From NCBI GenBank assembly GCA_016932785.1, contig JAFGCJ010000002.1, positions 273,777 to 337,776 of the forward strand: a stretch of DNA of 64,000 bases, in the 5' to 3' direction. The notes under the pieces were generated by a model. The model ran no database searches. It saw only the letters and a program-made list of their open reading frames with translations, and was not told where the DNA came from. A program made the translations under genes and the position numbers. The DNA comes from Candidatus Dojkabacteria bacterium (GTDB lineage Bacteria; Patescibacteriota; Dojkabacteria; SC72; JAFGCJ01). Positions 5,978-61,966 of this stretch are shown here, piece by piece. Positions within the stretch are counted from its first letter, which is position 1, and each line of letters starts with the position of its first letter.

Positions 5978-6163
5978 CTACAGATTCAGATAACTCATCA
6001 ACTCGTAGACCATAAATGCCGGCCATACAATAGCCTTAAGAATACCTAGCACTCCGACCCAAAATCCACTCGCAGTCGAAATGAAGTAGATAACGGCTCC
6101 AATAAAACCCAGGCCATATATTGCACCCGCAGGGGCAGCATAGGAAACATGCTTCTTCGCCAT
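5978..6163 (-). CDS. small two-TM membrane protein
   Basis: 61-aa ORF with two clear hydrophobic helices (GAIYGLGFIGAVIYFI; GVLGILKAIVWPAFMV). Confidence 0.5.
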   Translation of the reverse strand: MAKKHVSYAAPAGAIYGLGFIGAVIYFISTASGFWVGVLGILKAIVWPAFMVYELMSYLNL

Positions 6164-6295: not shown

Positions 6296-6973
6296 ATGAA
6301 CAACATTGACGTAAAAAAACTAAAGCTTTTTGTTTGCTCAACAACAATTACATCTCGGCTTCTTCCAAAGTTTGAAGACTTTGTTGGACGGAAAGCCGAT
6401 GGAATGAAGGTGGCTTTTATACCCGATGGCGCATTAGCCGAAGAAGGCAGCGAAAAATGGATCAACGAGTTTCAAAACAGTCTCAAAAAAATCGGATTCA
6501 AGTTAACAGAATACCACCTGGGAAAAGTACAAGATAAAAATCATTCATCACTTCTTGCTTTCGATGCTATTTTAGTAGCAGGTGGATCAAGTTGAAAATT
6601 AATAGATCTTTACCGAAAAACCCGTTTCGATGTCTTCCTTAATCAAGCTTTCGAAAAAGGAATAACATATATCGGCTCCAGTGCGTCAGGTATGATACTA
6701 TCATCATCTTTGGATTCGTCAGACTGGTACATCGGAGAAGAGGAACGGGGAACAAAAGAAATTCAGGGACTTGGGTATCTTTCCTTCCAAGTTTATCCTC
6801 ACTTTGAAGAAAAATTTCTTCCGGAAATATTAAAAAAGAGAAACCATGGGCTCAATTACTTACTACTAAAAGATGGTGAGGCTTTTTCGTATGATGGGCA
6901 GGTAATGAAGTTTTATGGAGAGAAGAACCTATATCCCAGGGATGATATAGACAATTTACGACCTACAAGCTGA
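6296..6973 (+). pseudogene. peptidase S51 (dipeptidase E/cyanophycinase family) interrupted by one in-frame TGA
   Basis: ORFs 6296..6595 and 6692..6973 are in the same frame, and hand translation of 6596-6691 is open. The only interruption is TGA at 6593-6595. The joined product reads ..AILVAGGSS*KLIDLY..ITYIGSSASGMIL.. This matches the GGGNTFxLL and catalytic GxSAG motifs of PepE-like enzymes. Confidence 0.7.
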
Positions 6974-6979
6974 AAGAGT

Positions 6980-6994
6980 AACCGAATGACACGG
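6980..6994. repeat. left arm of a 15-bp perfect inverted repeat bracketing the 7.0-8.0 kb G+C-rich cassette
   Basis: AACCGAATGACACGG is the exact reverse complement of 8013-8027. Confidence 0.8.
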
Positions 6995-7026
6995 GTAAAA
7001 AAGGAGAAATTGGCAAGAAAATTCGG

Positions 7027-7260
7027 CTACTCTTCGTCTCTGGTTTCACCTCCTTGTATAAGGGTGGTTTGACGAGCTCGAAGCTCGTTTTCGCACTTTT
7101 CGCACAAATGCGAAATTCTCGTCAAGCCAAAACTTTTTATGTGATGGTCGCAAAACCACTTCTTGCAACCGTCACATTTAATGACTGCATTATTTCCGCA
7201 GCCTCTATGACATTTGACAAGAAATCCTATGTAGGGTCGGAAGGCCCTTCTTTTAGCCAT
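7027..7260 (-). CDS. small AN1-like zinc-finger protein
   Basis: MAKRRAFRPY.. start chosen (ORF track gives 7281). The Cys/His pattern C-x3-C-x7-C-x2-C-x4-C-x2-H..H-x-C plus CEKC resembles an AN1-type two-zinc finger. It overlaps the upstream gene by 8 nt, suggesting translational coupling. Confidence 0.55.
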   Translation of the reverse strand: MAKRRAFRPYIGFLVKCHRGCGNNAVIKCDGCKKWFCDHHIKSFGLTRISHLCEKCENELRARQTTLIQGGETRDEE

Positions 7261-7933
7261 CTTGACCTCCTTCCCCACCACTGCAAAACTTCTCTAGGGT
7301 AAGGGGTATTCCCTCACCCGAGATCTCTCCGTCGAGAGATCGCTGATGGATAGCCTCGAAGTGCTCGCAAGTAACCGTCTCCCCAGGAATCCAGCGAACC
7401 GGTTTACACATGATCAACCAGCTCCTCGCATATTCCGCTCCCAGAAGACATTGTTCGTCTTCCTTTAGATACAGACTAGCGAGTCCGTCCTTTACGACGG
7501 TTTCTTCGCTAGCCGGAAGGCCTTCAGGAGAGAACACGTACGCATACATATTCCCTGTGACTTCCTTTTTCCAAATAACTGCTCGTTTCTTAGGTCCAAC
7601 AGTGCCTATCCAGACCTTAATGAGTACGACTTCGTCGAAGTCGTACCCAAATACGGCCATGCCGCCGGAATGGTCGTAATACTCAAAACAACCGGTCCAA
7701 CGCACCTGTTGACCGGTCTGAGGATTTACAACTTTTCTCGGAAGATTCTTGGCCTCTTCCGGGAGATTTTCAAACCCACATTCTTCAAACTCACCAGTCT
7801 GCTGAATTTCCTCAACCTCGGCATTTGCCTCGCCGAGAGTCATGTATTGTTGCTTGTTCAATTGATCAGCAACAATAACCAAAACCACCAATAAAACGAC
7901 TATAAGAATAGCCAAAAGAAATTCGTTCCTCAT
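7253..7933 (-). CDS. membrane-anchored hypothetical protein (G+C-rich ORFan)
   Basis: AAGGAGG RBS 6 nt before the ATG at 7933. N-terminal TM LLAILIVVLLVVLVIV. No family motif recognised. Confidence 0.6.
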   Translation of the reverse strand: MRNEFLLAILIVVLLVVLVIVADQLNKQQYMTLGEANAEVEEIQQTGEFEECGFENLPEEAKNLPRKVVNPQTGQQVRWTGCFEYYDHSGGMAVFGYDFDEVVLIKVWIGTVGPKKRAVIWKKEVTGNMYAYVFSPEGLPASEETVVKDGLASLYLKEDEQCLLGAEYARSWLIMCKPVRWIPGETVTCEHFEAIHQRSLDGEISGEGIPLTLEKFCSGGEGGQDG

Positions 7934-7958
7934 CGTCGGCCTCCTTTTTCGTTTTTAT

Positions 7959-8010
7959 GTTGAACCAGAACAAAACCCACAAAAACATGCTGGCTTTATT
8001 CTGGTTCAAC
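7959..8010 (-). promoter_or_regulatory. 12-bp perfect stem hairpin in the 5' region of the cassette
   Basis: GTTGAACCAGAA (7959-7970) and TTCTGGTTCAAC (7999-8010) with a 28-nt loop. It sits between the right IR arm and the RBS of 7933. Confidence 0.6.
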
Positions 8011-8012
8011 TT

Positions 8013-8027
8013 CCGTGTCATTCGGTT
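8013..8027. repeat. right arm of the 15-bp inverted repeat
   Basis: CCGTGTCATTCGGTT followed by TTTAAAG. Exact complement of 6980-6994. Confidence 0.8.
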
Positions 8028-12038: not shown

Positions 12039-12079
12039 CGTTCGAACTGTAGATTTTTTAAGTTCACACTGAAAAACGC

Positions 12080-12094
12080 CACCGAAAGGACGGG
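12080..12094. repeat. left arm of an imperfect inverted repeat bracketing the 12.1-13.1 kb G+C-rich cassette
   Basis: CACCGAAAGGACGGG compared with the reverse complement of 13086-13100 (AACCGAAAGGAAGGG): 13/15 identical. It shares the AACCGAA core with the 6980/8013 pair. Confidence 0.6.
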
Positions 12095-12115
12095 CATATC
12101 CGTGGAGCGGATATG

Positions 12116-12148
12116 AATACCATATTAGGGGGATGGTATTGCGTTTTT
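12116..12148 (+). terminator. rho-independent terminator after the 2TM gene
   Basis: AATACCAT / ATGGTATT stem followed by GCGTTTTTAT. It is preceded by a second 8-bp hairpin, CATATCCG / CGGATATG (12095-12115). Confidence 0.6.
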
Positions 12149-12172
12149 ATGTCGGAGAGACAGCTTTCAGCT

Positions 12173-13066
12173 TCATTGATTCTGCAGAGCTGGATACTGC
12201 TCCCTCACTGTTTCTTGCCAGATTCCATAGGAATCGTGTTCCTTGAATCCTATGGGAATCCCGTACTCATCTACTTCAGCCTCTTGAGCAAACTCTCCGA
12301 AGAGCTGAGTCCACTCTTTTTGCACAGAGACCCACATAGCATCCTGTTCTGGTTCTCCGTAACCTTTGAAATACCAGAACATCTGAATCCACTGGGCCTC
12401 TGCTTCCATCTCTGGAAGTTTTTTCTTGAGAGTGGAGATCGCACGATCACCAAACTCTTGAGATCCAATGCCTCCGACCTCCTGCTCCAGATCTGAATAG
12501 ATCTGAGAAATTTGCCGTAGATGGATGTACTCCTGGGTCAAACACGACCAGGAGTTTGGGCTCTCCAAGAGAGCCGGATAGACATTCAAATCGAAGCGGA
12601 GAACTTTATAGCTCCCCACAATAACAATCTCTATGGGGTCGATCTCTACTTGAACTGCTCTCTTAGGCACAGGCTGATATACAACTGTCATCATCTGTGC
12701 TTTCCAGAATCCTTCATCGCCAAGGCTCATGACGCTTTGATGATCCTGATCACGAGCCTGTTGAAGAAATTCCTCTGAGGCCAATGAAGCCAAGCGTGGG
12801 ATATCTTCCCTCTTGGCCGTCTTTTCGAGGAGCTCTAAGAATTGCTCCTTCATTTCGCCCACAGGAACAGATGACGCAACTACCTCCTCAGATGGTACAG
12901 AAGTGTCCGTCGGGCTAAAGACAACAGTCGGCTCGATTGTCACAGTCTCGGGTCTCGATGACCCGGCTGTAACAAACCCAGCCGCGACTAGCAAGATAAC
13001 AACCACGAGTATTCCCAAAACGCGCAAGTTTCTTTTCTTCCTTGTCTTCTTTGACATTTTTATCAT
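12173..13066 (-). CDS. membrane-anchored hypothetical protein (G+C-rich ORFan)
   Basis: 297-aa ORF with a basic N-terminus and TM (VLGILVVVILLVAAGFV). Five alternate-frame shadow ORFs in the track indicate elevated G+C. Confidence 0.6.
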   Translation of the reverse strand: MIKMSKKTRKKRNLRVLGILVVVILLVAAGFVTAGSSRPETVTIEPTVVFSPTDTSVPSEEVVASSVPVGEMKEQFLELLEKTAKREDIPRLASLASEEFLQQARDQDHQSVMSLGDEGFWKAQMMTVVYQPVPKRAVQVEIDPIEIVIVGSYKVLRFDLNVYPALLESPNSWSCLTQEYIHLRQISQIYSDLEQEVGGIGSQEFGDRAISTLKKKLPEMEAEAQWIQMFWYFKGYGEPEQDAMWVSVQKEWTQLFGEFAQEAEVDEYGIPIGFKEHDSYGIWQETVREQYPALQNQ

Positions 13067-13085
13067 TCCCCCAACACAATTTTTT

Positions 13086-13100
13086 CCCTTCCTTTCGGTT
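13086..13100. repeat. right arm of the inverted repeat
   Basis: CCCTTCCTTTCGGTT followed by TTTTAATG. This has the same ..TTCGGTTTTT..AA context as 8013-8034. Confidence 0.6.
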
Positions 13101-13330
13101 TTTTAATGAACTTGAGGCCCATAGAGGGCACTCTTCAGTCATATTATAGCCCACAGTCCACAATGAAGTAAAACCCATTAACAAAAGGAAAATCGTCAAG
13201 AACAGACATCAAAATTTTCTACAAATTCTGTTTTCATGATCTCACACCACATCAGTTAGATCACTTTTCCTATAACAATTCGTATGCAATAATGTATAAG
13301 ACCTCGAATATATTTTAATATCAAATCATC

Positions 13331-13819
13331 ATGCCTAAATCCAAAAAGAAATCCTCCTCAAAAACAGAAGACAAAATTGAAAAGAAAATTTCAGAGGCAA
13401 TAACCCGGAATGCTCCCAAAATTCTAGACGCGCTAATACCCACGATTCTTTTTCCCATCGTATACCTGCTTTTAAATAAATACTACAGAGACATAAAACT
13501 ATTTAACGAGAACTTCAGAGATATTCTTCCCCTTATTAATTTCTCCTTCCTCGCGGGTTTCGTGTTAAGCTTCACTCGACTATTTTTCTGGAATGATAAG
13601 TACAAAAGGATAACAACTATCGCAAGTAATCTTATTTTCCTTTACGTCAATTATCATGTCTGGAATATTTTTCCCTTTGATACCTCAGTAATAGGCAATC
13701 CCAAAACATGGGACACGGTGTTCAGGGTTTTAATGGTAATTGTTACCGTAGCATCAATTTTCGGTACTTTTGCAGAACTCGTAAGGCTTATGACCCCGAA
13801 GGAAGAAGAAAAGAAATAG
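13331..13819 (+). CDS. hypothetical 4-TM membrane protein
   Basis: 162-aa ORF with a Lys-rich N-terminus and several hydrophobic helices. No motif recognised. Confidence 0.5.
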   Translation: MPKSKKKSSSKTEDKIEKKISEAITRNAPKILDALIPTILFPIVYLLLNKYYRDIKLFNENFRDILPLINFSFLAGFVLSFTRLFFWNDKYKRITTIASNLIFLYVNYHVWNIFPFDTSVIGNPKTWDTVFRVLMVIVTVASIFGTFAELVRLMTPKEEEKK

Positions 13820-29655: not shown

Positions 29656-29696
29656 TCAAAAAATTTTCTGCCCAGAAAAATTTATAGATTTATATT

Positions 29697-29948
29697 ATGG
29701 CCGTATTTAAACGGTTAATATTGGGCAGTTACATCATTTCTAGAGTTATTATAGCTATTTCAATTTTTATACCAGGAATAGCTTTCTTGCTAATCGCCAT
29801 AAGCAGAAGCCCATTTACACGACCTGCTGAGGCAGATTTTAAATCTGGTCAAATAAAATCTCAGATCACACAAGAAGAAAATATTGAAGACACCTCTGAG
29901 CACGTAGAAATTGGCTTCACTCAGGTCATAAGACCACTTTCAAGGTAG
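29697..29948 (+). CDS. small membrane protein
   Basis: 83-aa ORF with one or two TM segments (IISRVIIAISIFIPGIAFLLIAI). Confidence 0.4.
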   Translation: MAVFKRLILGSYIISRVIIAISIFIPGIAFLLIAISRSPFTRPAEADFKSGQIKSQITQEENIEDTSEHVEIGFTQVIRPLSR

Positions 29949-33446: not shown

Positions 33447-33726
33447 CCCTACTCTTCTAGTAATAAGAGAAGTAAATGCCCGAATAAAGAAAAACTAACC
33501 CTTGGAAATGGGCAGATCATAGCCAGAATTACTGACTTAACTAACATTCAGGCAGTTTAATTAAACTGAGTTATGAGCCTAATATCAATCTATAGGAATT
33601 TCCATCCAAAGTCAACCCTGCAAAACCCCAGATATGCCTATAACAATGCGAAATATTGCGTAGGAACATAGTTCGAGTAGAAACATCATCAACTTTGAGC
33701 TATAATTACAACAATTTAATAGAAAA

Positions 33727-33961: not shown

Positions 33962-35476
33962 ATGAACAACCACAAAAAAATCAAAAACAAACTAGACAAA
34001 CTTGGATTTAAGTACCAGACTATTGACCTTGCCACAGAGTCTTTGGATCTCGACGAACAGGTCCGCGCAGGGAATCTTAAATACAGCGAATGTGTTGGAA
34101 CACTTCTAATCAAAGACCAACGGGGTAATTACTATGCTTTCCTTAGAAGAGACGACAGAAAAATGGATGCCGAAAAGGTGAAAACGATTATTGGAAGCGA
34201 CTCATTTGATTTCTGTGATGACAAAGACCTTGAAAAAATAGGATTCGAATCAGGACTTCTTTCTCCAGTACTACTAAACGACGGCAAAAAACCAATCAAA
34301 GTATTTGTAGATCAAAATATCAAAAAGATGAAAGTCGTTAACTGTGGACCGGCAATTCCCGGTGCAACCCTCCGTCTCGATAAAGACGATCTCCTCAAGG
34401 CAGTTGGAGAATATGAATTTATAGATTTTACACAGCCTAACCCCCAGAGATCTGATGATCTTTTCTCCTCTGATAAGGTTGTTTACACCGCTGATACCCC
34501 AACAGGTCAGATGCATATCGGACATTACGTTGGAACACTAGAAAATCGGGTTAAGCTCCAAGATAGATTCAACTGTTTTTTCGGACTTGCCAACTATCAC
34601 TCATTTTCATATATGCAAAAAGGTGAGGGCCTCTATAAGAATCCAGATTTTATTCACGAAGTGACTCTACAGGTTGCCATGGATAATCTAGCGGTAGGAA
34701 TAAACCCCGAAAAGTGTACCTACTATATCGAATCAGATGTTCCTGAGACATGTGAACTTGCAATGCTCTTCAGCATGCTGGTATCACACAACCGCGCCCT
34801 AAGAAATCCGACCATTAAGGACGAAATTAAACTAAAAGGCATGGGAAATCAGTTCTCACTTGGATTCATCAACTATCCAATGCTCCAAGCAGCGGATATC
34901 CTTATATTTAAAGCCGAATTAATTCCTGTCGGCAAAGACCAGTTGCCCCATATTGAGCAATCGAGAGAAATAGCCCGAGACTTTAACGAGCTATATGGTG
35001 AGACATTCCCAATTCCAGAGGGTCTTGTAGGAAAGGTCGGAATGCTTCCAGGACTTGATAACAAAAAAATGAGCAAAAGTCTCGGAAATGCTATCGTATT
35101 CACTGATTCCGACGAAGAAATCAAAAAGAAAATAATGAGCATGTACACCGATCCTAACAGGATACATCCGACTGATCCTGGCAAGGTAAAAGACAACCCC
35201 GTATTTATATACCATGAAGCTTTCAATCCAGATAAGGAAGAAATTGAAGATTTGAAGGAACGCTATGAAACCGGAAAAGTCGGCGATGTGGAGGTAAAGG
35301 AGAAACTGGCAAATGCTATGATTAATTTCATCGCTCCAATTCGAGAAAGAAGAAAGAAATACGAGGATAATCCTGACCTTCTAAGAGAAATTCTATCAGA
35401 AGGCGGCAAAAAAGCTAGAAAAGAAGCAAAGAAAACCATGTCCGAAGTCAGAGAAAAGATGAAACTGGACTTCTAG
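33962..35476 (+). CDS. trpS: tryptophan--tRNA ligase with N-terminal YbaK/ProX-like (tRNA_edit-type) domain
   Basis: Residues ~1-165 follow the YbaK pattern (..CVGTLLIKD..YYAFLRRDDRKMD..GFESGLLSPVLL..VNCGPAIPGATLRL). The class Ic core has TPTGQMHIGHYVG (HIGH), PMLQAADIL, GKDQLPHIEQSREIARDFN and KKMSKS. The upstream T-box has a UGG specifier. Confidence 0.85.
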   Translation: MNNHKKIKNKLDKLGFKYQTIDLATESLDLDEQVRAGNLKYSECVGTLLIKDQRGNYYAFLRRDDRKMDAEKVKTIIGSDSFDFCDDKDLEKIGFESGLLSPVLLNDGKKPIKVFVDQNIKKMKVVNCGPAIPGATLRLDKDDLLKAVGEYEFIDFTQPNPQRSDDLFSSDKVVYTADTPTGQMHIGHYVGTLENRVKLQDRFNCFFGLANYHSFSYMQKGEGLYKNPDFIHEVTLQVAMDNLAVGINPEKCTYYIESDVPETCELAMLFSMLVSHNRALRNPTIKDEIKLKGMGNQFSLGFINYPMLQAADILIFKAELIPVGKDQLPHIEQSREIARDFNELYGETFPIPEGLVGKVGMLPGLDNKKMSKSLGNAIVFTDSDEEIKKKIMSMYTDPNRIHPTDPGKVKDNPVFIYHEAFNPDKEEIEDLKERYETGKVGDVEVKEKLANAMINFIAPIRERRKKYEDNPDLLREILSEGGKKARKEAKKTMSEVREKMKLDF

Positions 35477-35983: not shown

Positions 35984-38173
35984 TTACAGATATTTCAGAA
36001 TTTTAGCCTTGTCCATGTCAACAAACTCAACATTATCCTTATCTCTCTTTTTCATCTCAACCTTATCTTCCTTAAGAGTTTTTTCACTGATAACTATTCT
36101 TAATGGAATACCAATCAAATCAGCATCAGCAAATTTCACTCCTGGTGAAACGTCCGACCTGTCATCCCAAAGAATTTCAACCCCAGATTCTGAAAGATCG
36201 TTATATAGTTTTTCTGATTCTTTTGTGATCTTCTTACCATCGCCAATAGAAACAAGAATCACAGAGAACGGAGCAATGCTCCTGGGCCACACTATTCCGT
36301 TCTCATCGTGATGCATTTCAACAACTGAAGCCATAGCACGTCCAACGCCAATCCCATAGGCTCCCATCCACATAGGTTTTTCCTTCCCATCCTTATCAAC
36401 AAAATAAGCCTTGTGAGGATTAGTGTAATAATGATCATATTTAAAGATATGTCCAACCTCAATTGACTTCTTCTCCTTTAAATAACCGTCCTTACATTTG
36501 GGACACTTCGCACCATCGTATGCCGAGGCAATATCGTCTATCTTTGAAACTTTGAAATCACGACCATAATTAACATTGAATGAATCTGTTGTCTTTTCTT
36601 TAAGTCCTCCAATGAGGTTTTTAGACATTTTTAGTGCAATATCTCCGACATAAATCACATTATCCCTACCCTCATCATGACCCCACGAGTGAACCCACCC
36701 ACTCTTTGTACCAATACTCGTAAGGTCCTCCTCATCAGCATAGTCAAGAACATCAATATCGTCGAACAGATTGGCAATCTTTGTAGCGTTAGCCTCGAGA
36801 TCTCCTCGTACAACGGCAATTATCAATCGCCCCTTTTTGTCTTTGAAAACAACATTCTTAAGAAAATGGGACTTTGGCTTCTTATAATGCTCCACATTTT
36901 CATCCATGGTACATACCCACTCAGGCTGCTCAATAATCTCAAAAGGTTTTTCTTCTTCATCTATGTTTACAGAATCCCTCACAAATTCTGCCTTCTCGAC
37001 GTTTGCTTTATAGCCACACCGGTCACACATGACAATCTTATCTCCTCCTGCACTAAACACCTTGTCCTCTCGAACATCTACGAAGTCTTTTACTTTGAGA
37101 TCCCGTCCAATATTCACATTCTTACGAAAGACTCTCTCCTTATGGGCACCGTCATAATAGTTCTTGTTATATTTAACAGACTCATCGATAATAAGCTCAA
37201 CTTTGCTATCCAGCCCTATCGGAGAAACATAACCAATAAACGATCCCAACTCATCAATCTCAGATTTTGTTGCAGGTCGTATAGTCTTGTACTTAAGCAG
37301 TCTTCGAAGCTTAATGAAGTCAATCCTGTAATCTCCACGTATCGTAATACATATGTACTTTTTCCCATCAACAACATAGACCATGTTCTTCAAAGTTTTT
37401 TCCGGATGTTGTGCATAGAATTTTAGGATCTTCTTATACTCCTTCTGGTTCTTCGACACATCCTCAACTTCCATTCGGAGTTCTTTCTCGTCTTCATCAA
37501 AATATAAATCCAATTCCTGAACTCTTTCAGGGGTAATTACCATAAATTCATGACTATAATCTCCTCCGAGCGCACCATTGTCGGCAATCACAGCCTCTGT
37601 CTTAAGCCCAACACGATTAAAAATCTTCTCGTAGGCCTTCCAGTATGCATCGTAGGTCTTCATAAAAGACTTTTCATCCCTCTCATAATTGTAAGCATCC
37701 TTCATCAAAAACTCTCGAACCCTTATTAGTCCTCCCCGGGGCCTCAACTCATCCCTGAACTTGGGAAGAAACTGATATACATTTATAGGAAGATCTTTAT
37801 AGCTCGGCTTTTCTGACTTTATAACTTCAGTCATAAGCGCTTCAGCTGTAGCACTCATTGCAAAGGTACGGCCAAAATGATCCTTAGCCACAATCATTTG
37901 TTCCCCAAATGCCTCATCACGGTTAGTAATTCTCCAAGGCTCAATAGGCTGCATTATAGGCAGTTCCATTCTCTGAGAACCAATGGCCTCCATCTCCTCA
38001 ACGATTATCTTAATAATCTTATCCTTAACTCGATAACCAAGCGGCATGAATGCATATCTCCCAGTAGCAACCTGCCGAATGAAACCTCCCCTATAAAGGA
38101 GTCTGTGACTTTCAGCCTGTGCATCAGATGGAACGGTCTTAGATGTTTTCAAAAAGTATTCAGTAAATTTCAT
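35984..38173 (-). CDS. proS: proline--tRNA ligase, bacterial type, with duplicated INS (YbaK-like) editing module
   Basis: Class II motifs (FRDELRPRGGLIRVREFLMKDAY; GAYGIGVGRAMASVVE) and a C-terminal anticodon-binding region. At 729 aa it is longer than the usual ~570 aa. It has two INS-like units (LKNMVYV..ITIRGDYRIDFIKL..YVSPIG..NVNIGRDLKV and LKNVVFK..AVVRGDLEANATKI..NVNYGRDFKV). Confidence 0.9.
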   Translation of the reverse strand: MKFTEYFLKTSKTVPSDAQAESHRLLYRGGFIRQVATGRYAFMPLGYRVKDKIIKIIVEEMEAIGSQRMELPIMQPIEPWRITNRDEAFGEQMIVAKDHFGRTFAMSATAEALMTEVIKSEKPSYKDLPINVYQFLPKFRDELRPRGGLIRVREFLMKDAYNYERDEKSFMKTYDAYWKAYEKIFNRVGLKTEAVIADNGALGGDYSHEFMVITPERVQELDLYFDEDEKELRMEVEDVSKNQKEYKKILKFYAQHPEKTLKNMVYVVDGKKYICITIRGDYRIDFIKLRRLLKYKTIRPATKSEIDELGSFIGYVSPIGLDSKVELIIDESVKYNKNYYDGAHKERVFRKNVNIGRDLKVKDFVDVREDKVFSAGGDKIVMCDRCGYKANVEKAEFVRDSVNIDEEEKPFEIIEQPEWVCTMDENVEHYKKPKSHFLKNVVFKDKKGRLIIAVVRGDLEANATKIANLFDDIDVLDYADEEDLTSIGTKSGWVHSWGHDEGRDNVIYVGDIALKMSKNLIGGLKEKTTDSFNVNYGRDFKVSKIDDIASAYDGAKCPKCKDGYLKEKKSIEVGHIFKYDHYYTNPHKAYFVDKDGKEKPMWMGAYGIGVGRAMASVVEMHHDENGIVWPRSIAPFSVILVSIGDGKKITKESEKLYNDLSESGVEILWDDRSDVSPGVKFADADLIGIPLRIVISEKTLKEDKVEMKKRDKDNVEFVDMDKAKILKYL

Positions 38174-39281: not shown

Positions 39282-40907
39282 CTATCTCATTAGGTTCTCC
39301 AGACGTGTAATCAAATCCGCCATACTCTTAGGTTCAAAATGCCTTCTGGCGGGTTCCAAAATCTTTACTACTGCTTCAGATACAGCTGTCTTTAGATCCA
39401 ACGGATGAAGCTTGCCTTCCTCAAACAGATTAAACATTTCCTGCTCAGATTCAAAATTGATATCTCCTCCATGTTTCTTTTCTCTTTTGACCTCTAGCTT
39501 TCCTAAAATAGGAAAAACCAAGTGCTTCGCCCAATCTAAAACGGGATTAAACTCAATCTCCCTTTCAGGACAGAAAGCTCCATTTATCTTCCTTCGTATC
39601 TCATCGACACTGTCATGGATAAACACACACGTATCAGGCTTAGATTTACTCATTTTCATCTCTGACCAAAGTTCTCTAAGCCTTGCCTTATCCTTAATCG
39701 GCCAAACTGGCGGCTTACCAAGACCAAGAATTAGGTGGTGATGAATTGCAACAGGCTTTATCTTATTCTTGCTTTCGTCCAATAATGGAGAGACCTCGAG
39801 TTTTTCAGCAACTTCGCGAGCTATAACATGTGCCTTCCTCTGATCCATACCCCCATGAGCAATATTTACACCAATATTAAAAATATCATTAACCTGCATC
39901 GGCGGATATACAAGCCAGGCAAAGCATTGATTCTCTCCCTCACGCCTACCCATAATCGTGGAACTCTTTACTACACGAGCCAGAGTCAGATTCTTGGAGA
40001 CATCAATAAACGATTGCCAGTACTTATCATTATTGTGATAAAACTCAGATCCAAGGATAAAATTCACTTTCAACGGATCAGCCCCGGCACACTTCAACGA
40101 TGCAATTAATGCTTCCTTAAAATATCCCACTGCAACTTCAGTTATCGTCTCAAGATCTCCATTTAGCTTTCCATTTATCCAGGCATGCCAATCTGCAAGC
40201 AAGATATTGCACTCAACACCGGCCTTGAGTAGATCCTTGATTTTAAGAGCAGTCATAAGTCCGCTCCCAATATGGAGTTTACCGGAAATTTCAAAACCAA
40301 TATAATGGCGAAGCTTAGTTTCTCCAACTATCAGCGATTCCAGATCCTTCTCCGTAAGACACTCTTCAAGATTTCCCGTTATTAAACTTTTCTTCTTTTC
40401 TTGGCTGAGAGAAAGACTCATCTCTATTTTCTCCTTATTACTTAATTTATCGGCCAATTGGGTCACTCTAACATTATGCAATTTACTCAGTGCTTCTTCA
40501 ACACTAAGGTTTATACCCTTAGCCAAATCCCCGGCTCCCATACTCCATCTATCCATATCCGCGGCTTCTTTATCAACCAATATTGGGATGTCAAGCAGGA
40601 AAGGATTTAAACACCCTGGCCGAAACTTAAAATTTTCCGCTAATGCTTGTTCGTCCAGAATATCCCATTTCCCGATGTTTTTCCTCAGAAGCTTCTGATC
40701 AATGCGTTGATCCCCCTTAAGCAGAACAGCAAAAAAGCCCTCAGATGTTTTCACAACTAAAGTCTTTATTGCAATTTGCGGATCATAATTCTTGTCCACT
40801 GAAGAATCGACCTTTCGAGCAGATATGGCCCTATCCGTAAAAGTAATTTCTTCAAAGTTCAGTCCTATTTTCTTCAATTTTCTGGCAACAGAATCAAATG
40901 TATGCAT
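39282..40907 (-). CDS. tyrS: tyrosine--tRNA ligase, archaeal/eukaryotic type, with N-terminal YbaK/ProX-like domain
   Basis: The core closely parallels M. jannaschii TyrRS from memory: HYIGFEISGKLHIGSG, LLADWHAWIN, YPPMQVNDIFNIGVNIAHGGMDQRKAHVIARE, KMSKSKPDTCVFIHDS and HGGDINFESEQEMFNLFEEGKLHPLDLKTAVSEAVVKILEPARR. The N-terminal ~160 aa follow the YbaK pattern (..IAIKTLVVK..FFAVLLKGDQRID..FRPGCLNPFLL..SMGAGDLAKGINLS). Confidence 0.88.
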   Translation of the reverse strand: MHTFDSVARKLKKIGLNFEEITFTDRAISARKVDSSVDKNYDPQIAIKTLVVKTSEGFFAVLLKGDQRIDQKLLRKNIGKWDILDEQALAENFKFRPGCLNPFLLDIPILVDKEAADMDRWSMGAGDLAKGINLSVEEALSKLHNVRVTQLADKLSNKEKIEMSLSLSQEKKKSLITGNLEECLTEKDLESLIVGETKLRHYIGFEISGKLHIGSGLMTALKIKDLLKAGVECNILLADWHAWINGKLNGDLETITEVAVGYFKEALIASLKCAGADPLKVNFILGSEFYHNNDKYWQSFIDVSKNLTLARVVKSSTIMGRREGENQCFAWLVYPPMQVNDIFNIGVNIAHGGMDQRKAHVIAREVAEKLEVSPLLDESKNKIKPVAIHHHLILGLGKPPVWPIKDKARLRELWSEMKMSKSKPDTCVFIHDSVDEIRRKINGAFCPEREIEFNPVLDWAKHLVFPILGKLEVKREKKHGGDINFESEQEMFNLFEEGKLHPLDLKTAVSEAVVKILEPARRHFEPKSMADLITRLENLMR

Positions 40908-40931: not shown

Positions 40932-41014
40932 TCCAGGGGGCAGGATTCGAACCTGCGAAGCCTTTCAGCGTTGGATTTACAGTCCAATGCATTTGACCAC
41001 TCTGCCACCCCTGG
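40932..41014 (-). tRNA. tRNA-Tyr (anticodon GUA), class II with long variable arm, no encoded CCA
   Basis: Minus strand: CCAGGGG-UG-GCA(GAGUGGUCAAA)UGC-A-UUGGA(CUGUAAA)UCCAA-CGCUGAAAGGCUUC-GCAGG(UUCGAAU)CCUGC-CCCCUGG-A. It has a 7-bp acceptor stem, the T-loop consensus and discriminator A. It ends 24 nt upstream of the tyrS ATG. Confidence 0.92.
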
Positions 41015-41018
41015 TATG

Positions 41019-41045
41019 ATGCCTGGCTTCGGCGATGCCTGACAT
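41019..41045. repeat. REP-derived remnant (two direct copies of the REP right arm) abutting the tRNA-Tyr 5' end
   Basis: ATGCCTGgcttcggcgATGCCTGACAT. The second copy matches the right arm of the REP at 46138-46150 except for one base. Confidence 0.55.
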
Positions 41046-41376
41046 ATATAATCGAGACATAGCTCACAACCACTGGCCTTTACTTCATGAAGATGGAGGA
41101 AAAGGGTAAAACCCAAATGGCTGTGAGCTTTTTTATTGGAAGTAGACCTGGATCAAACGAGTGCCAAAGGCTAGCCTCTTTCCAGGTCTTTGGAGATCAC
41201 AATATTTGTTTAGCACAAGAGTGCTAACTAGTTGTAATCACCGCGATACACTACTATCACCTCCTCTATAAAGAACAGCGGTTATTTTAGGCCTTAATTC
41301 CAGATAATACTCCTGGTCGGCCACCGCTCAATAAATCCGTACAAAATTAACTTTTCATTAAGCGAAAGCCCACCGG

Positions 41377-41400
41377 TGCCAGGCATAGCCTATGCCAGCA
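41377..41400. repeat. REP-like palindrome (degenerate copy, opposite orientation)
   Basis: TGCCAGGCATAG-C-CTATGCCAGCA has the same core as the REPs flanking the RAYT gene. It carries one A.A mismatch at the variable arm position. Confidence 0.65.
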
Positions 41401-41475
41401 TATTCAATTCTGCGTCCATTCGGCATAACACAAATCTGCTCTTTAAGTATTTTTTGCTTTTAGCAGCGGTTTTGC

Positions 41476-44131: not shown

Positions 44132-44276
44132 GACTGGAAGAACGAATTAATACGAATAAATCGGATAGCAATTCGAATTTGAAGCAGACAGCAAGTTGGT
44201 CGATAGAGGCACCGGGGGCAGAGTCGCCCTCTCACGTGTAAAGGGCGACCCCGCCGAAGGCGTGGAAACAGATAAT

Positions 44277-44561
44277 TCATGGCCATGACTGGGCGGGCTG
44301 AATTTTTGTAATGACGCACGAGCCCTCTATCATTTCATGATCTGAAACTGATGAGGGACAGCTGAGTTCTCCAGTAAAGAGATTCTTTTCAGCACACCCG
44401 CTGTACGGAATAGAAAAACCCTCTGGAGATCTGTACAGAGCTTCAGCCTTGTAGTCACAGTCCACGGTCATGTTCTTATATACAAGCCCCCCCACTGCAA
44501 TCAGGAGCAACACAGCCAGTACCACCACTCCTGCTCTTCTTGCTACGATCCAGAATTTCAT
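44277..44561 (-). CDS. small membrane-anchored hypothetical protein (G+C-rich)
   Basis: ORF 44277..44663 trimmed to Met35 (MKFWIVARRAGVVVLAVLLLIAV..), which is preceded by GGGAGGTGAGGGAG. Confidence 0.5.
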   Translation of the reverse strand: MKFWIVARRAGVVVLAVLLLIAVGGLVYKNMTVDCDYKAEALYRSPEGFSIPYSGCAEKNLFTGELSCPSSVSDHEMIEGSCVITKIQPAQSWP

Positions 44562-44787
44562 CTCCCTCACCTCCCAGACAAAAGTCCCTATCATCTCTGA
44601 TAGAGCTACATAAAAACACACAGTATTCTTATGAAGCCCTATCAGATCCCAACTTGCTGTCAAAGAACGGGGCTTGAAGTCCGCAAGACCCGGAATTTGA
44701 GCCCAGAGACATTCGACCCTAAATTTTGGGCAAGATTATAGCACAAAGTGGAATCTAATAGGCAAATCTGTAAAACAAAGGATCCCC

Positions 44788-46123: not shown

Positions 46124-46150
46124 TGTCAGGCATAGGCTATGCCTGACATA
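46124..46150. repeat. REP palindrome flanking the RAYT gene (3' side)
   Basis: ATGTCAGGCATAG-G-CTATGCCTGACAT has 13-nt perfect arms around a single central nt. It overlaps the last codons and stop of the RAYT ORF. Confidence 0.8.
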
Positions 46151-46607
46151 GAGTCTTTGTAAAATGAATGTATCGTGGATTAATGTATAACCACTTGTAA
46201 AAGGAAGGGTCGTATACATACCCTTCCTTGACCGGATTTCTCTCGATATACCTGATCAGCCTACGTAAACTGCTCTTTGTGAAAACAGATTTTGCTTGAT
46301 AACGCCCCTGAAAAGTATGCCCCACAAGCCTATATTTCAAATTGAAATATTTCGAATATGATGTTAAAAGTCTCTGCATAAGAATTGATATCTCATCGCC
46401 AAAACCCTGCCTAACAACCAAATGAAAATGATTATCCATAAGACAATATCCTATTAGCTCTATACCACAATCAAAGACAGTCCTCTTCAATTTACTAATA
46501 AAGAATAACCGGTCTATTCTCGACCGAAAAATCCTTTTTTTTCTATTACCACGATTGTATACATGATATATAACACCAGATTTATAGTCCCTCTTAACTC
46601 TATTCAT
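46137..46607 (-). mobile_element. REP-associated tyrosine transposase (RAYT; IS200/IS605 Y1 transposase-like)
   Basis: 156 aa. VIYHVYNRGN, the HUH motif LMDNHFHLVV, GHTFQGRYQAK and the catalytic-Tyr region LIRYIERNPVKEG. It is flanked on both sides by cognate palindromes. Confidence 0.85.
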
Positions 46608-46660
46608 AAAACCATTCTAAGGGCAAATTCTTAAGAATCCATTAACAAATATCCTTCCGG

Positions 46661-46685
46661 TGTCTGGCATAGGCTATGCCAGACA
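46661..46685. repeat. REP palindrome flanking the RAYT gene (5' side)
   Basis: TGTCTGGCATAG-G-CTATGCCAGACA has perfect 12-nt arms. It differs from the 46124 copy by an A>T change that is compensated in the other arm. Confidence 0.8.
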
Positions 46686-46686
46686 T

Positions 46687-46722
46687 AAAAAGAGAAAGCC
46701 CCTTTCGAGGCCCTCTCTTTAC
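46687..46722 (-). terminator. rho-independent terminator of the 46748..47014 gene
   Basis: Minus strand AAAGAGAGGGCC-UCGAAA-GGGGCUUUCUCUUU followed by UUUAU. Confidence 0.6.
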
Positions 46723-48617: not shown

Positions 48618-48825
48618 AGGGGAAAGAATTCACACATAAACAATCTATATTTCACAGAAAGGAACAGCAAGAGCAGCAGCAGAAATGACCCAAAGGGCCC
48701 ACCAAGATATTCACCAGTTCCAGTCCCGTTGGGACTGATGAATATCAAGGCTTCGTCCACCAGATCTTTCCCCACTTCGTTCATGGGACGTGAGAAAAAT
48801 TGGTGTCAGGTAAAGGTGCTGCGTC

Positions 48826-50460
48826 CTAGGGGTCTACCCCAAACGCAATTCCGCAGTAGGTTTCCGCTCCGTTGCTGTCGATAACGTAAGCCCGCACCGT
48901 GTGGTACGTGCCAGCACTCCAGTTTCCAACGAGCGCCGTCTGAGTGTTCACATTGAGATTCCGGTACATGTCCACGGTCCACCAGATTTCTTCTATCTCG
49001 GCTGTACTGGTAACATGGACTGTCGCGTAGATGTCCTGGTTCTTGGGAACATACCACCACGTCTCGAATCTGGTCGTTGGAGCCAGAGAGATATTACACT
49101 CGATCTGCTCCTGCATTTGCGACTGGTGCCCGTTCAATATCAAAGGGAGATACACCAGGCTTTGCTCTTCCCAGCAGGCTACACGAACATGCGCATAGGA
49201 ATTCCCGGTCTCTTCGTCGTCCGAGTATCCCTGGAGCCAACAACTGTTGCTAAGAGCCACCACATCGGGGTAATTAGCCCCGAAAAGCGCCTCGGGTACA
49301 ACAGTCTGGCTTTCTGTGATGACAACTCCATCGCGCTGGACGAGAGCCATCTGGAGACCCGACAGGTCTTCCAACGGGTTGCTCTGCGTCGTGATCGAGC
49401 GGTATGTGACGTTGATACCGACACTTGATTCCGTGACCGCCGGATACATTTCATGGCGATTGGTCACATCGGTCAGCGCCCAGTCCCGCAAGTGGACACC
49501 TGCAGAAGAGTACGTCGTACCAGAGATGTGCCACGTAGCTCCGGGAACCTCATCCTCGTGAGCCCAGGTCACATGGACACGCCCGTTCCCGTCAATCGCA
49601 ACGTCAGGAAACTGATCGAACCCCGCCAAGAGCAAGTCCTCTCTGTGAGCGACCGCTGCATTCGACGGATCCAGCCAAGCGACACTTACGTCTCGCCGGC
49701 ATTCTGCAACCCCACAGCTATCATTGTAGTACCTACTGCTGTGATAGGCCGCAACGATCAAAGTATCACCATCTACCTGTCGCGAAGCCATGCGAACAGC
49801 AGAAGCTGTCCCGGCAGCTCCGGCAGGAGATACCGATCGCTCAGACCCGACAGTCGCAATGCCGGCACTCACAGTCACGGGAACCGCGTCTAGTTCTTGG
49901 TTGTGGCGATACACTACGACCCAGGAGTTCCCACCAGCATACGCCAGGGCGATACCGCCAAGGTTGGTCGACACCGAAGGAGTAAACGTCACTGTAGGAG
50001 CTAGCACTGTGCCTCCCACATTGTAGTGGGTGCACCTCACCGCACCCGGACCCGAGGTCCCAGCGACATACTCCGACCAGCAAACTATTACCTGCTGGCC
50101 ATTCCAAGAGCTCGCGATCTTTACGCGCGCGCCGTTTCCTGTCACCGTATACACCCCTTGAACTGTTACCGTCTTGTTCAACACTATGAGATCGCTCATC
50201 GTGACGGTTCCATCTGAGGCATAATCAGCGGCTAGAACTCGGCTATCCGACAGATTAACAAGTTCGACATGTGCCCCTGATCCCAAGTCCAAGACAGGAC
50301 CGAGTACGATGCTTTCGTTTCCAGCAGCCAACACATCGTCGGCAGTGCTCTGGGAAGAGGGGGCAGCGACCACATTCTCGCCTGGAAGGGCCAGAATAAG
50401 CGCCACCAATCCAACAACAGCGGCCAAAACCGCAATACATACATTCAATTTCTTGTTCAT
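48826..50460 (-). CDS. secreted hypothetical protein (strongly G+C-rich ORFan)
   Basis: Track ORF trimmed to Met56 (MNKKLNVCIAVLAAVVGLVALILALP.., a signal peptide), which is preceded by AAGGAG. A spot count gives 35/60 G+C at 49861-49920. Many alternate-frame shadow ORFs are present. Confidence 0.65.
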   Translation of the reverse strand: MNKKLNVCIAVLAAVVGLVALILALPGENVVAAPSSQSTADDVLAAGNESIVLGPVLDLGSGAHVELVNLSDSRVLAADYASDGTVTMSDLIVLNKTVTVQGVYTVTGNGARVKIASSWNGQQVIVCWSEYVAGTSGPGAVRCTHYNVGGTVLAPTVTFTPSVSTNLGGIALAYAGGNSWVVVYRHNQELDAVPVTVSAGIATVGSERSVSPAGAAGTASAVRMASRQVDGDTLIVAAYHSSRYYNDSCGVAECRRDVSVAWLDPSNAAVAHREDLLLAGFDQFPDVAIDGNGRVHVTWAHEDEVPGATWHISGTTYSSAGVHLRDWALTDVTNRHEMYPAVTESSVGINVTYRSITTQSNPLEDLSGLQMALVQRDGVVITESQTVVPEALFGANYPDVVALSNSCWLQGYSDDEETGNSYAHVRVACWEEQSLVYLPLILNGHQSQMQEQIECNISLAPTTRFETWWYVPKNQDIYATVHVTSTAEIEEIWWTVDMYRNLNVNTQTALVGNWSAGTYHTVRAYVIDSNGAETYCGIAFGVDP

Positions 50461-50877
50461 TTCGTAGCTCCTTTTTTTTCGTGTCTGATTTTTGAACTTT
50501 ATTAACACCTTTTTACCTGATTTGCCCGTTTTAGCTAGCGGATATACTAAAGACAAAAATCTACCAAAATGATGAGGCCTTGAACCACCTCTTATCCCCA
50601 GTATATCCGCTGCTATAACAAGCAACTTTTTTCTGCTGCTGCTTTACTAAAACCGATAGCTATTTTCTCGTGGTCTACCATTAAATAAGGTAAGCACACA
50701 ACAAGCCATCGTAAATAGCATTATAACCTTTAATAAAGCAACTTTATCAAAGAACTAATTAATTGCTATATAAAATTATTATACCAGATACAGCCAATAA
50801 ATTAAATACACTATAGGTTGTCACGAGGCGCTATTTCTGATATACTTTCACCATATATTAACTATTTACTAGCCAAA

Positions 50878-61213: not shown

Positions 61214-61966
61214 ATGAAGAAGCTCCGGACCTATAACCTAATAATGGGCTTTTTTCATCTAATTCAGGCTGGTCTGATGATTGCCCTCAGTAACGATTTC
61301 GCTCTTCCAGTGACAACACGTTATCTTAGATTTAATATACAAACTCAATCATTGCAACCCAAGTCTGAAGAGATAGCTACTCTCAAAATAGGCCCTCTGG
61401 TAGCACTTTTCTTACTTATGTCCGCGATGGCCCACTTTCTATTAACAATTCCGAGAATTTACAACTGGTACACCAAGAATCTAAAAAAGGGGATAAACTA
61501 CGCCAGATGGTACGAGTATTCCCTCAGTTCCTCGGTAATGATTGTTGTAATAGCAATGCTTACTGGAGTTTATGACTTGAGTAGTCTCATTCTAATGTTT
61601 TCAATAAATGCGATGATGATATTCTGCGGACTAATGATGGAAAGGCACAATCAAAACACCAAGAAAACGGACTGGGTGCCGTATGTGTTCGGTTGCTTCG
61701 CAGGAGCTGTACCTTGGGTTGTTATTGCCCTTTATCTATTCGGTTCAGCCGACGGAGAGAATCGAGCACCAGATTTCGTTTACTATATATTCTTCTCGAT
61801 TTTCCTGTTCTTCAACTCTTTTGCTGTAAATATGTTTTTGCAGTACAAGAAGGTTGGAAAATGGAAGGACTACTTATTCGGAGAAAAGGTATACATTTTG
61901 CTCAGTCTGCTTGCCAAATCACTACTAGCCTGGCAGGTATTCGGAGGAACTTTGAGACCGGAATAA
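61214..61966 (+). CDS. heliorhodopsin
   Basis: 250 aa with 7 TM. There are long collinear matches to heliorhodopsin 48C12 as I recall it: FHLIQ..LSNDFALP, RWYEYSLSSSVMIV (Glu101 is the counterion position), FGCFAGAVPW, FLFFNSFA, and LQYKKVGKWKDYLFGEKVYILLSLLAKSLLAWQVFGGTL. Lys235, codon 61916-61918, is at the Schiff-base position. Confidence 0.88.
   Translation: MKKLRTYNLIMGFFHLIQAGLMIALSNDFALPVTTRYLRFNIQTQSLQPKSEEIATLKIGPLVALFLLMSAMAHFLLTIPRIYNWYTKNLKKGINYARWYEYSLSSSVMIVVIAMLTGVYDLSSLILMFSINAMMIFCGLMMERHNQNTKKTDWVPYVFGCFAGAVPWVVIALYLFGSADGENRAPDFVYYIFFSIFLFFNSFAVNMFLQYKKVGKWKDYLFGEKVYILLSLLAKSLLAWQVFGGTLRPE

Follow-up and report, generated by a model that had tools for sequence, protein, structure and literature searches.

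In a 64-kb window of DNA (the whole stretch analysed here) from a metagenome-assembled genome of Candidatus Dojkabacteria, a lineage of the candidate phyla radiation (CPR), the minus-strand orphan gene at 12173-13057 is bracketed by a short inverted repeat that delimits a unit at 12080-13100. Such a bracket was found around four units, numbered 1 (6980..8027), 2 (12080-13100), 3 (48672..50643) and 4 (44187..44661), and the evidence for the class comes from these four units within the one window. They lie on the minus strand, have a raised G+C content at third codon positions (GC3), are led by a Shine-Dalgarno (SD) sequence and encode anchored or exported orphan proteins, and each of them has its own private inverted repeat. 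The bracket is genuine and specific in orientation, and it characterizes a class that was set independently of it, by composition and translation signals. Unit 2 itself is a self-contained single-gene transcription unit for an exported or membrane-anchored orphan protein, foreign-looking in its genome. Its contig measures 598,548 bp, and a second, independent assembly from run SRR13394437 is 100% identical over 12.9 kb spanning units 1 and 2.

The bracket was assessed for every unit of the window that is bounded by intergenic regions (n=43; gene coordinates for the ranking were those supported by databases). For each unit the intergenic regions on its two sides were aligned with each other in inverted orientation, p values were obtained from dinucleotide-preserving shuffles, and direct alignment of these regions served as control. 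The four units occupied ranks 1, 2, 3 and 4 of the 43. The probability that four named units fill the top four places is 1/C(43,4), or about 8e-6. For units 1, 2, 3 and 4 the p values were 0.0004, 0.004, 0.0014 and 0.0006 (Fisher combined p 5e-9), and their direct-orientation controls remained at background (p 0.43-0.73). The palindrome-flanked IS200 element, used as positive control, came at rank 6 of 43. The three highest-GC3 units (12173-13057, 7027-7933 and 48826-50460) stood near the top of this test before unit 4 was considered. Unit 4 was picked on its SD, GC3 and anchor without reference to repeats, and its repeat was tested only afterwards. The ranks, the shuffle p values and the background direct controls together indicate that the bracket is real for the class. 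The original prediction had argued from units 1 and 2 for an element family rather than coincidence; this view is borne out and extended to four units, the last of them predicted. Genes that are high in GC3 and have no SD, i.e. that for a 61-aa membrane protein (5978-6163) and the heliorhodopsin gene, showed no flanking repeat. Rank 5 of 43 was taken by an A+T-rich 14/15 repeat, TATAGATTTATATTA (29683-29697 / 33580-33594), around a gene pair for TruB and a 923-aa protein. This pair has normal GC3 and no SD, and its repeat is probably promoter-like A+T-rich sequence.

The translation signals that set the class apart were surveyed in the 25 nt upstream of every start, with the SD:anti-SD pairing energy calculated at annotated starts. 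SD use is scarce in the window: 30 of the 52 genes lack a match of at least 4 nt, and the median energy is -0.5 kcal/mol. The five best SDs at annotated starts are those of the five genes in the four units, namely AAGGAGGT for 7027-7260 (-15.1 kcal/mol), GGGAGGTGAGG for 44277-44561 (-14.5), AAAGGAGG for 7253-7933 (-12.2) and, weaker, AAAGGAG for 48826-50460 (-8.5) and GGGGGA for 12173-13057 (-8.4), followed at -6.9 kcal/mol by the next gene; this contrast is limited to annotated starts, since allowing any in-frame internal start yields chance SD-like sites in many genes and makes the SDs of units 2 and 3 unexceptional. The window contains no rRNA gene. The comparison set consisted of six related Dojkabacteria loci (64 units; 109 genes) and an additional 14 kb of the same genome. 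In the six loci no gene among the 109 had an SD match of at least 6 nt. Loss of the anti-SD motif has been documented in some CPR lineages (PMC9297842) and SD-independent initiation in Bacteroidetes (PMC7797042); no statement on Dojkabacteria was found in the literature on these two subjects. In the relatives, GC3 was not generally linked to flanking repeats among the 64 units, though comparable genes are lacking there. Neither was it seen in the relatives that opposite-strand islands generally carry repeats.

In unit 2 the left (3'-side) arm is CACCGAAAGGACGGG at 12080..12094, which reads on the mRNA strand as CCCGUCCUUUCGGUG and then GCGUUUUU and coincides with a terminator-like match at 12093>12079. 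The right (5'-side) arm is CCCTTCCTTTCGGTT at 13086..13100, of which the reverse complement, and thus the mRNA-strand sequence, is AACCGAAAGGAAGGG. It falls in the predicted 5' untranslated region (UTR), 28 nt upstream of the ATG at 13057, and contains the SD-like GAAAGGA with a pairing energy of -11.4 kcal/mol. The two arms match at 13/15, as had been claimed, and a gapped alignment lengthens the repeat to 12060-12094 / 13086-13113 (AAGTTCA..AAAAA..ACCGAAAGGA-GGG). Taken alone, a 13/15 repeat is at chance level window-wide: 165 inverted pairs with a spacing of 500-2000 nt were observed against 135 +/- 18 in Markov shuffles. When only the intergenic flanks of unit 2 are compared, the inverted repeat has p=0.004 in dinucleotide shuffles and the direct-orientation control p=0.73. 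It is the weakest repeat among the four units (p=0.004-0.0085). The sequence GAAAGGA is scarce between genes, with 4 intergenic sites in the window, 2 of which are these arms. On folding, the arms of unit 2 gave no stable structure of their own; as they do not self-fold, stand-alone terminator hairpins are ruled out. By-eye reading of the arms for an integron attC/core-site pattern or a recombinase-type dyad symmetry gave a fit to neither. An SD-like GAAAGGAAGGG in the right arm also lies 6 nt before the TTG of a 54-codon open reading frame (ORF) at 13079-12915 (minus strand), which runs out of frame over the orphan start. Other, trivial inverted repeats occur nearby, where the divergent genes have Lys-rich N-termini (13026-13050 / 13366-13390).

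The repeats are private to their units. It had been proposed that a related arm motif defines the family; no k-mers are shared by the four repeats beyond chance, and no k-mer or motif common to the four leaders and the four trailers was found beyond chance in their UTRs. The resemblance of 11/15 to the arms of unit 1 is reached by only one arm of unit 2, in comparison with the 6980 arm. About 0.05 matches as good as this resemblance are expected among the other repeat pairs, which makes it a ~5% event. The similarity between units 1 and 2 also runs outward beyond the arms into TTAAAAA, past the supposed element end. The right-hand contexts of unit 2 and of the 8013 arm are indeed similar (TTCCGTGTCATTCGGTTTTTAAA versus TTCCCTTCCTTTCGGTTTTTTAA, 18/23). 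A scan for the AACCGAA pattern through the 64 kb and the 14 kb more of the same genome did not return paired elements, but just two unpaired, chance-level matches inside ordinary genes. No further copies of the arms of any unit were present in these 78 kb.

The sister units differ in content. Unit 1 (6980..8027, minus strand) has AACCGAATGACACGG as arms at 6980-6994 / 8013-8027 (15/15; p=0.0004), the sole perfect 15/15 inverted pair in the window, where 0.125 are expected. It contains the gene 7933>7253 for an anchored orphan of 226 aa and the gene 7260>7027 for a Cys-rich protein of 77 aa, both with strong SDs. That units 1 and 2 are both on the minus strand and encode anchored ORFans was rightly noted before; unit 1, with its two genes, was not described as such. 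For the 226-aa protein only the protein itself was recovered in the word-based search of 5.8 billion proteins, in HMMER of 1.84 billion representatives, in Pfam, PHROGs and NCBIfam and by tblastn against phages and plasmids. Its gene has a very stable leader hairpin at 7959-8010 (minus strand), immediately inside the 5' arm, with a 19-bp stem, GUUGAACCAGAA.../...UUCUGGUUCAAC (z -5.9), which had no Rfam match (the best was a chance-level sRNA, E 0.43). The Cys-rich ORF at 7027-7281 (minus strand; 77 aa from MAKRRAF...) overlaps the end of the 226-aa gene and has several CxxC / HH motifs. It is preceded by the strongest SD of the window and gave sub-threshold Pfam matches only (UPF1 zinc-binding; Tc5 transposase C-terminal Cys-rich). 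Unit 3 (48672..50643, minus strand) is bracketed by AGCAGCAGCAGAAA at 48672-48685 / 50630-50643 (14/14; p=0.0014) around the gene 50460>48826, which encodes 544 aa (MNKKLNVCIAVLAAVVGLVALILALPG...) with a GC3 of 0.60 and the SD AAAGGAG. Unit 4 (44187..44661, minus strand) has arms at 44187-44210 / 44636-44661 with a 13-nt perfect core, GACAGCAAGTTGG (as aligned, GACAGCAAGTTGG(GA)TC(T)GATAG-GGC; p=0.0006). Its gene, 44561>44277 (94 aa, MKFWIVARRAGVVVLAVLLLIAVGGLV..., SD GGGAGGTGAGG, GC3 0.49), emerged when alternative starts were allowed, and an independent gene caller gave the identical start. In units 2 and 3 the gene is oriented opposite to both neighbours.

The orphan gene of unit 2 (12173..13057, minus strand; JW710_02150, MBN2100671.1) encodes 294 aa. 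The ORF 13066>12173 is a genuine gene: its length is notable for a genome of 40% G+C and it shows the usual coding pattern, with G+C at first codon positions (GC1, 0.57) exceeding that at second positions (GC2, 0.36). The start codon had been placed at 13066. The likely start is the NCBI call at 13057, which gives the 294 aa, and 13066 is an alternative ATG. The gene is G+C-rich as described (GC 0.478; GC3 0.510 versus a window mean of 0.383, sd 0.057, z +2.2) and its codon usage is mildly atypical (z -1.9). Also in agreement with the original prediction, the protein is N-terminally anchored, its beginning MSKKTRKKRNLRVLGILVVVILLVAAGFVTAG consisting of a charged N-terminus and then a hydrophobic anchor or signal. 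This is followed by a Pro/Thr/Ser/Val linker and a domain of ~220 aa. ORFan status was upheld by a word-based search of 5.8 billion proteins and by HMMER of 1.84 billion representatives, which returned the protein itself and, besides, one spurious 27-residue match. Among about 15 billion proteins in all there was no homologue. No Pfam, PHROG or NCBIfam match was obtained, tblastn against phages and plasmids gave no match and no donor, and the AlphaFold2 single-sequence model was unusable (predicted local distance difference test score 41). Close strains are not available for comparison, as every 90% cluster holds this genome alone. The nearest relatives, 58-61% identical, are not syntenic, and neither are the neighbourhoods of the closest MacB homologues. 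Four genome and metagenome scans gave no matches.

The gene is accompanied by its own signals. The SD-like GGGGGA (13067..13072, minus strand) lies 9 nt before the ATG at 13057. A promoter-like TTTACT-18-TATAAT is predicted at 13143..13172 (minus strand), outside and upstream of the 5' arm, with the -10 box 42 nt from it. In each of the four units a consensus -10 (TATAAT or TACAAT) precedes the 5' arm by 33-76 nt, accompanied in three of them by a plausible -35 or an extended -10. A U-tract is predicted directly after the 3' arm of unit 2. Between the orphan gene and a convergent 2TM gene (plus strand) lies what reads as a compound bidirectional terminator region, 12074..12148, in which 75 nt form a cloverleaf-like structure with an 8-bp closing stem, AAAAACGC/GCGTTTTT (elsewhere written AAAAACGC/GCGUUUUU), enclosing three hairpins. 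Folding gave z -3.6 for the minus strand and z -2.0 for the plus strand, and GCGUUUUU occurs on either strand. The structure is not a tRNA (no Rfam match, ARAGORN negative), and a hairpin with U-tract at convergent gene ends, as in intrinsic terminators, is present. Since the left arm lies within this region, its surroundings are accounted for; the right arm, without a structure of its own, is not. An Rfam search of units 1 and 2 returned nothing. The marks of a horizontally acquired islet, atypical composition together with own signals, are present in unit 2: GC3 and codon usage deviate modestly, and the leader is SD-like in an SD-poor genome.

What the bracket does can be read at the level of RNA or of DNA. 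The reading that we favour, tentatively and with less than even confidence, is that the arms close the mRNA into a 5'-3' panhandle. Every 5' arm follows a predicted -10 box and every 3' arm follows the stop codon, so that both would be transcribed into one mRNA, within which they would pair. In unit 2 the helix would continue as GUGUUGGGGG:CCCCUAAUAU and cover the SD. Such a closing helix would set mRNA stability and/or translation. As only complementarity matters, the arm sequences need not be common to the units. The hok fold-back is a known case of 5'-3' pairing. Pairing of 5' UTR and 3' UTR has likewise been described for icaR of Staphylococcus aureus (PMC3868564) and hbs of Bacillus subtilis (PMC5737220). 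In predicted folds of the full-length mRNAs of units 2 and 1 the arms are found in a closing helix, in minimum-energy and centroid structures alike, and for unit 2 both contain the 13/15 helix plus GUGUUGGGGG:CCCCUAAUAU. Of 50 other 3' UTRs, 49 pair less well with the SD window of the orphan gene than the gene's own 3' UTR does. Moreover, the panhandle requires no extra component, in a window where no recombinase or terminal-repeat transposase was found. The idea that the class is also characterized by an anti-SD motif in the 3' UTR was supported only in part. Long UTRs gave no useful information in RNAduplex, where the background was -51 kcal/mol.

Several observations weigh against a panhandle. 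Predicted 5'-3' pairing occurred in 35 of 42 control transcripts, and the helix of unit 1 vanished when generic transcript ends were used. Compared with real non-cognate UTR pairs under RNA pairing rules, unit 2 reached p=0.13 and units 1 and 3 ~0.01. Pairing of the sense strand was no better than that of the antisense strand, and duplex energies had no consistent bias. The perfect cores (15, 14, 13 and 10 nt) have no G-U pairs, which suits identity at the DNA level at least equally well. Units 3 and 4 have a G+C-rich hairpin ahead of the 3' arm; if this hairpin is the 3' end of the transcript, the arm is left untranscribed. Promoters and transcript ends are predictions, and promoter-like matches are no commoner than in shuffles. 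There are no homologues or close strains to show covariation, and the repeat-bracket pattern was found neither in the 64 units of the six related loci nor in the 14 kb more of the same genome, where no comparable gene exists.

It is also possible, if somewhat doubtful, that these are gene units of a kind undescribed in CPR, in which acquired SD-led exported genes carry a private inverted repeat that acts at the DNA level, being flipped by a promiscuous recombinase or serving as an insertion handle recognized by its structure. Of the more specific forms of DNA-level action, a whole-gene inversion switch is unlikely but to be taken seriously. Here a recombinase encoded elsewhere would flip the bracketed gene relative to a fixed outside promoter and so make surface or exported proteins phase-variable. 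Invertons are common near surface-protein genes (PMC11892184), and in the window repeats of 13-26 nt (perfect cores 10-15 nt) bracket whole exported or anchored genes, with the predicted promoter just outside the 5' arm in four of four units. The absence of G-U pairs in the cores and of strand asymmetry fits this as well, and in units 1 and 2 both arms have outward T-runs, which would provide a terminator in either orientation. However, the screen for recombinases and transposases, which covered window ORFs of at least 120 aa and the called genes of the 14 kb beyond (L008, L009), yielded no invertase, no tyrosine or serine recombinase and no terminal-repeat transposase, and the four repeats offer no common motif for one enzyme. 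Known invertons usually carry a promoter and not a gene. In addition, a single orientation is present in both assemblies, with each protein on one contig, and inversion leaves the foreign composition and the SDs unexplained.

It is improbable that the arms mark the ends of cassettes acquired horizontally, with the repeats as insertion scars or handles. Such cassettes could resemble mobile insertion cassettes, defined as inverted-repeat-bracketed elements without a transposase of their own (PMC3913671), or result from structure-recognizing uptake. The four units do look foreign in their highest GC3, their SDs in an SD-poor genome and their orphan proteins, units 2 and 3 run opposite to their neighbours, and the bracket is specific to exactly this class. 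The outermost AACCGAA is common to units 1 and 2, and AAAG(A) may form a direct repeat on the flanks of unit 1. Mobility as implied in the original prediction is nevertheless not supported, since consistent target-site duplications and a terminal-repeat transposase or recombinase are missing from the window: in unit 2 the one candidate is TGAA, 4 nt long, at offset 6 and lacking any extension of the repeat, and units 3 and 4 have none. The arms differ among the units, so that no single transposase could serve all, and there are no more copies in the 78 kb. The sole transposase of the window, an IS200-type Y1 enzyme, uses 27-nt palindromes. Nor do the arms behave as the ends of an element: the predicted promoters fall outside them and the space within is too short for one, which would leave a cassette promoterless. 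The similarity of units 1 and 2 that continues past the arms into TTAAAAA argues in the same direction. Change-points in G+C fall elsewhere than at the arms; taken as cassette boundaries they were of too low resolution and gave inconsistent results.

Mere coincidence in unit 2 is the least probable explanation. Unit 2 would then be an ordinary lineage-specific gene, in whose leader a purine tract, GAAAGGA, happens to complement the pyrimidine strand of the gene's weak terminator hairpin. In favour of this, 13/15 pairs are at chance level window-wide, the repeat of unit 2 is the weakest of the four, the unit does not stand out from real non-cognate UTR pairs, the left arm falls in a terminator region explained in its own right, and trivial inverted repeats lie close by. 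Against it, the class members rank 1-4 of 43 with a combined p of 5e-9, the prediction of unit 4 succeeded, GAAAGGA is rare between genes and the arms, which do not self-fold, are not simply terminator hairpins.

The window contains other features of note. An IS200/IS605-type element at 46124-46687 comprises a Y1 transposase gene (46137-46607, minus strand) and a perfect 27-nt palindrome, TGTCAGGCATAGGCTATGCCTGACATA, at 46124-46150 / 46661-46687. Two more copies of the palindrome (81% and 70% identity) are located at 41020-41046, abutting a tRNA-Tyr gene (40932-41014), and at 41377-41403. The segment of ~380 bp between them (41020-41403) is transposase-less and probably a non-autonomous IS200/IS605 derivative. 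The Logan assembly apparently breaks at the IS200/IS605 region. The heliorhodopsin gene (61214-61966, plus strand; Pfam E 1e-105) has a counterpart in a relative (L004 2190-2942), there beside a MacB-type transporter. Heliorhodopsins have been mentioned for freshwater CPR including Dojkabacteria (PMC9166423). Two adjacent short ORFs, 6296-6595 and 6692-6973 (plus strand), the first with a weak Peptidase_S51 match, are probably a pseudogene split by a stop or frameshift. Finally, two class I (Trp/Tyr-type) aminoacyl-tRNA synthetases with an N-terminal YbaK-type tRNA_edit domain are encoded near a ProRS-type enzyme (33962-35476, 39282-40907 and 35984-38173), and this tRNA_edit-synthetase fusion was also found twice in the related locus L003.

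If the bracket is functional, it sets apart a group of genes in a minimal bacterium that depends on a host. These genes encode surface or exported proteins whose origin is unknown, and they have translation signals of their own and an architecture in common. This would speak for one of three things, of which none is documented in CPR, namely a route for uptake and domestication of foreign genes, phase variation of the surface, or control of mRNA by pairing of its ends. The search rule that follows is simple and testable: a gene that combines an SD leader and high GC3 with intergenic flanks carrying inverted repeats. Should the pattern not hold across the genome, what is left at the locus is no more than an orphan gene that has a promoter and a terminator to itself.

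Among known systems, phage 'morons' and small genomic islets are acquired genes with their own promoter, terminator and odd composition, and are not defined by flanking inverted repeats. Unit 2 resembles a moron in being an autonomous single-gene unit between unrelated genes, with atypical G+C and translation signals. It differs in not lying in a prophage, with no PHROG matches and no phage genes nearby. The IS200/IS605 family of the window is a genuine mobile family, which ranked 6 of 43 in the flanking test; its four copies of one shared palindrome, TGTCAGGCATAGGCTATGCCTGACATA, and its Y1 transposase have no equivalent among the four units, which share nothing of the kind. With mobile insertion cassettes and miniature inverted-repeat transposable elements (MITEs) the units have in common a size of 0.5-2 kb, a passenger gene, the lack of a transposase, terminal inverted repeats and atypical composition. 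They differ in having no consistent target duplication, single-copy private arms, no cognate transposase and a promoter outside. As two defining features of mobile insertion cassettes, target duplication and copies with shared termini plus a matching transposase, are lacking, unit 2 cannot be filed there. Like invertons (PMC11892184; bioRxiv 10.1101/2023.03.11.532203), the units have short inverted repeats with perfect cores and a segment by or with surface-protein genes. Here, however, the whole gene is bracketed, the promoter is outside, one orientation is seen, the repeats share no motif and no recombinase was found, so that unit 2 cannot be filed as an inverton either. Like icaR, hbs and hok, the units have complementary segments in what are predicted to be the leader and the trailer of a single message; these segments are gene-specific and in unit 2 would form a helix over the SD region. 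Whereas those systems concern a regulator, a histone-like protein and a small toxin, exported orphans of 94-544 aa are concerned here, and the arrangement, predicted from sequence, recurs on several foreign-looking genes of one genome with no G-U pairs and no strand asymmetry. With transcript ends that are predictions and no homologues to show covariation, unit 2 cannot be filed as an icaR-type interaction. It would be a new variant of whichever of these mechanisms holds, be it cassette, inverton or icaR-type pairing. We believe that the novelty lies in SD-led, GC3-rich exported orphans being combined, within a CPR genome poor in SDs, with private flanking inverted repeats.

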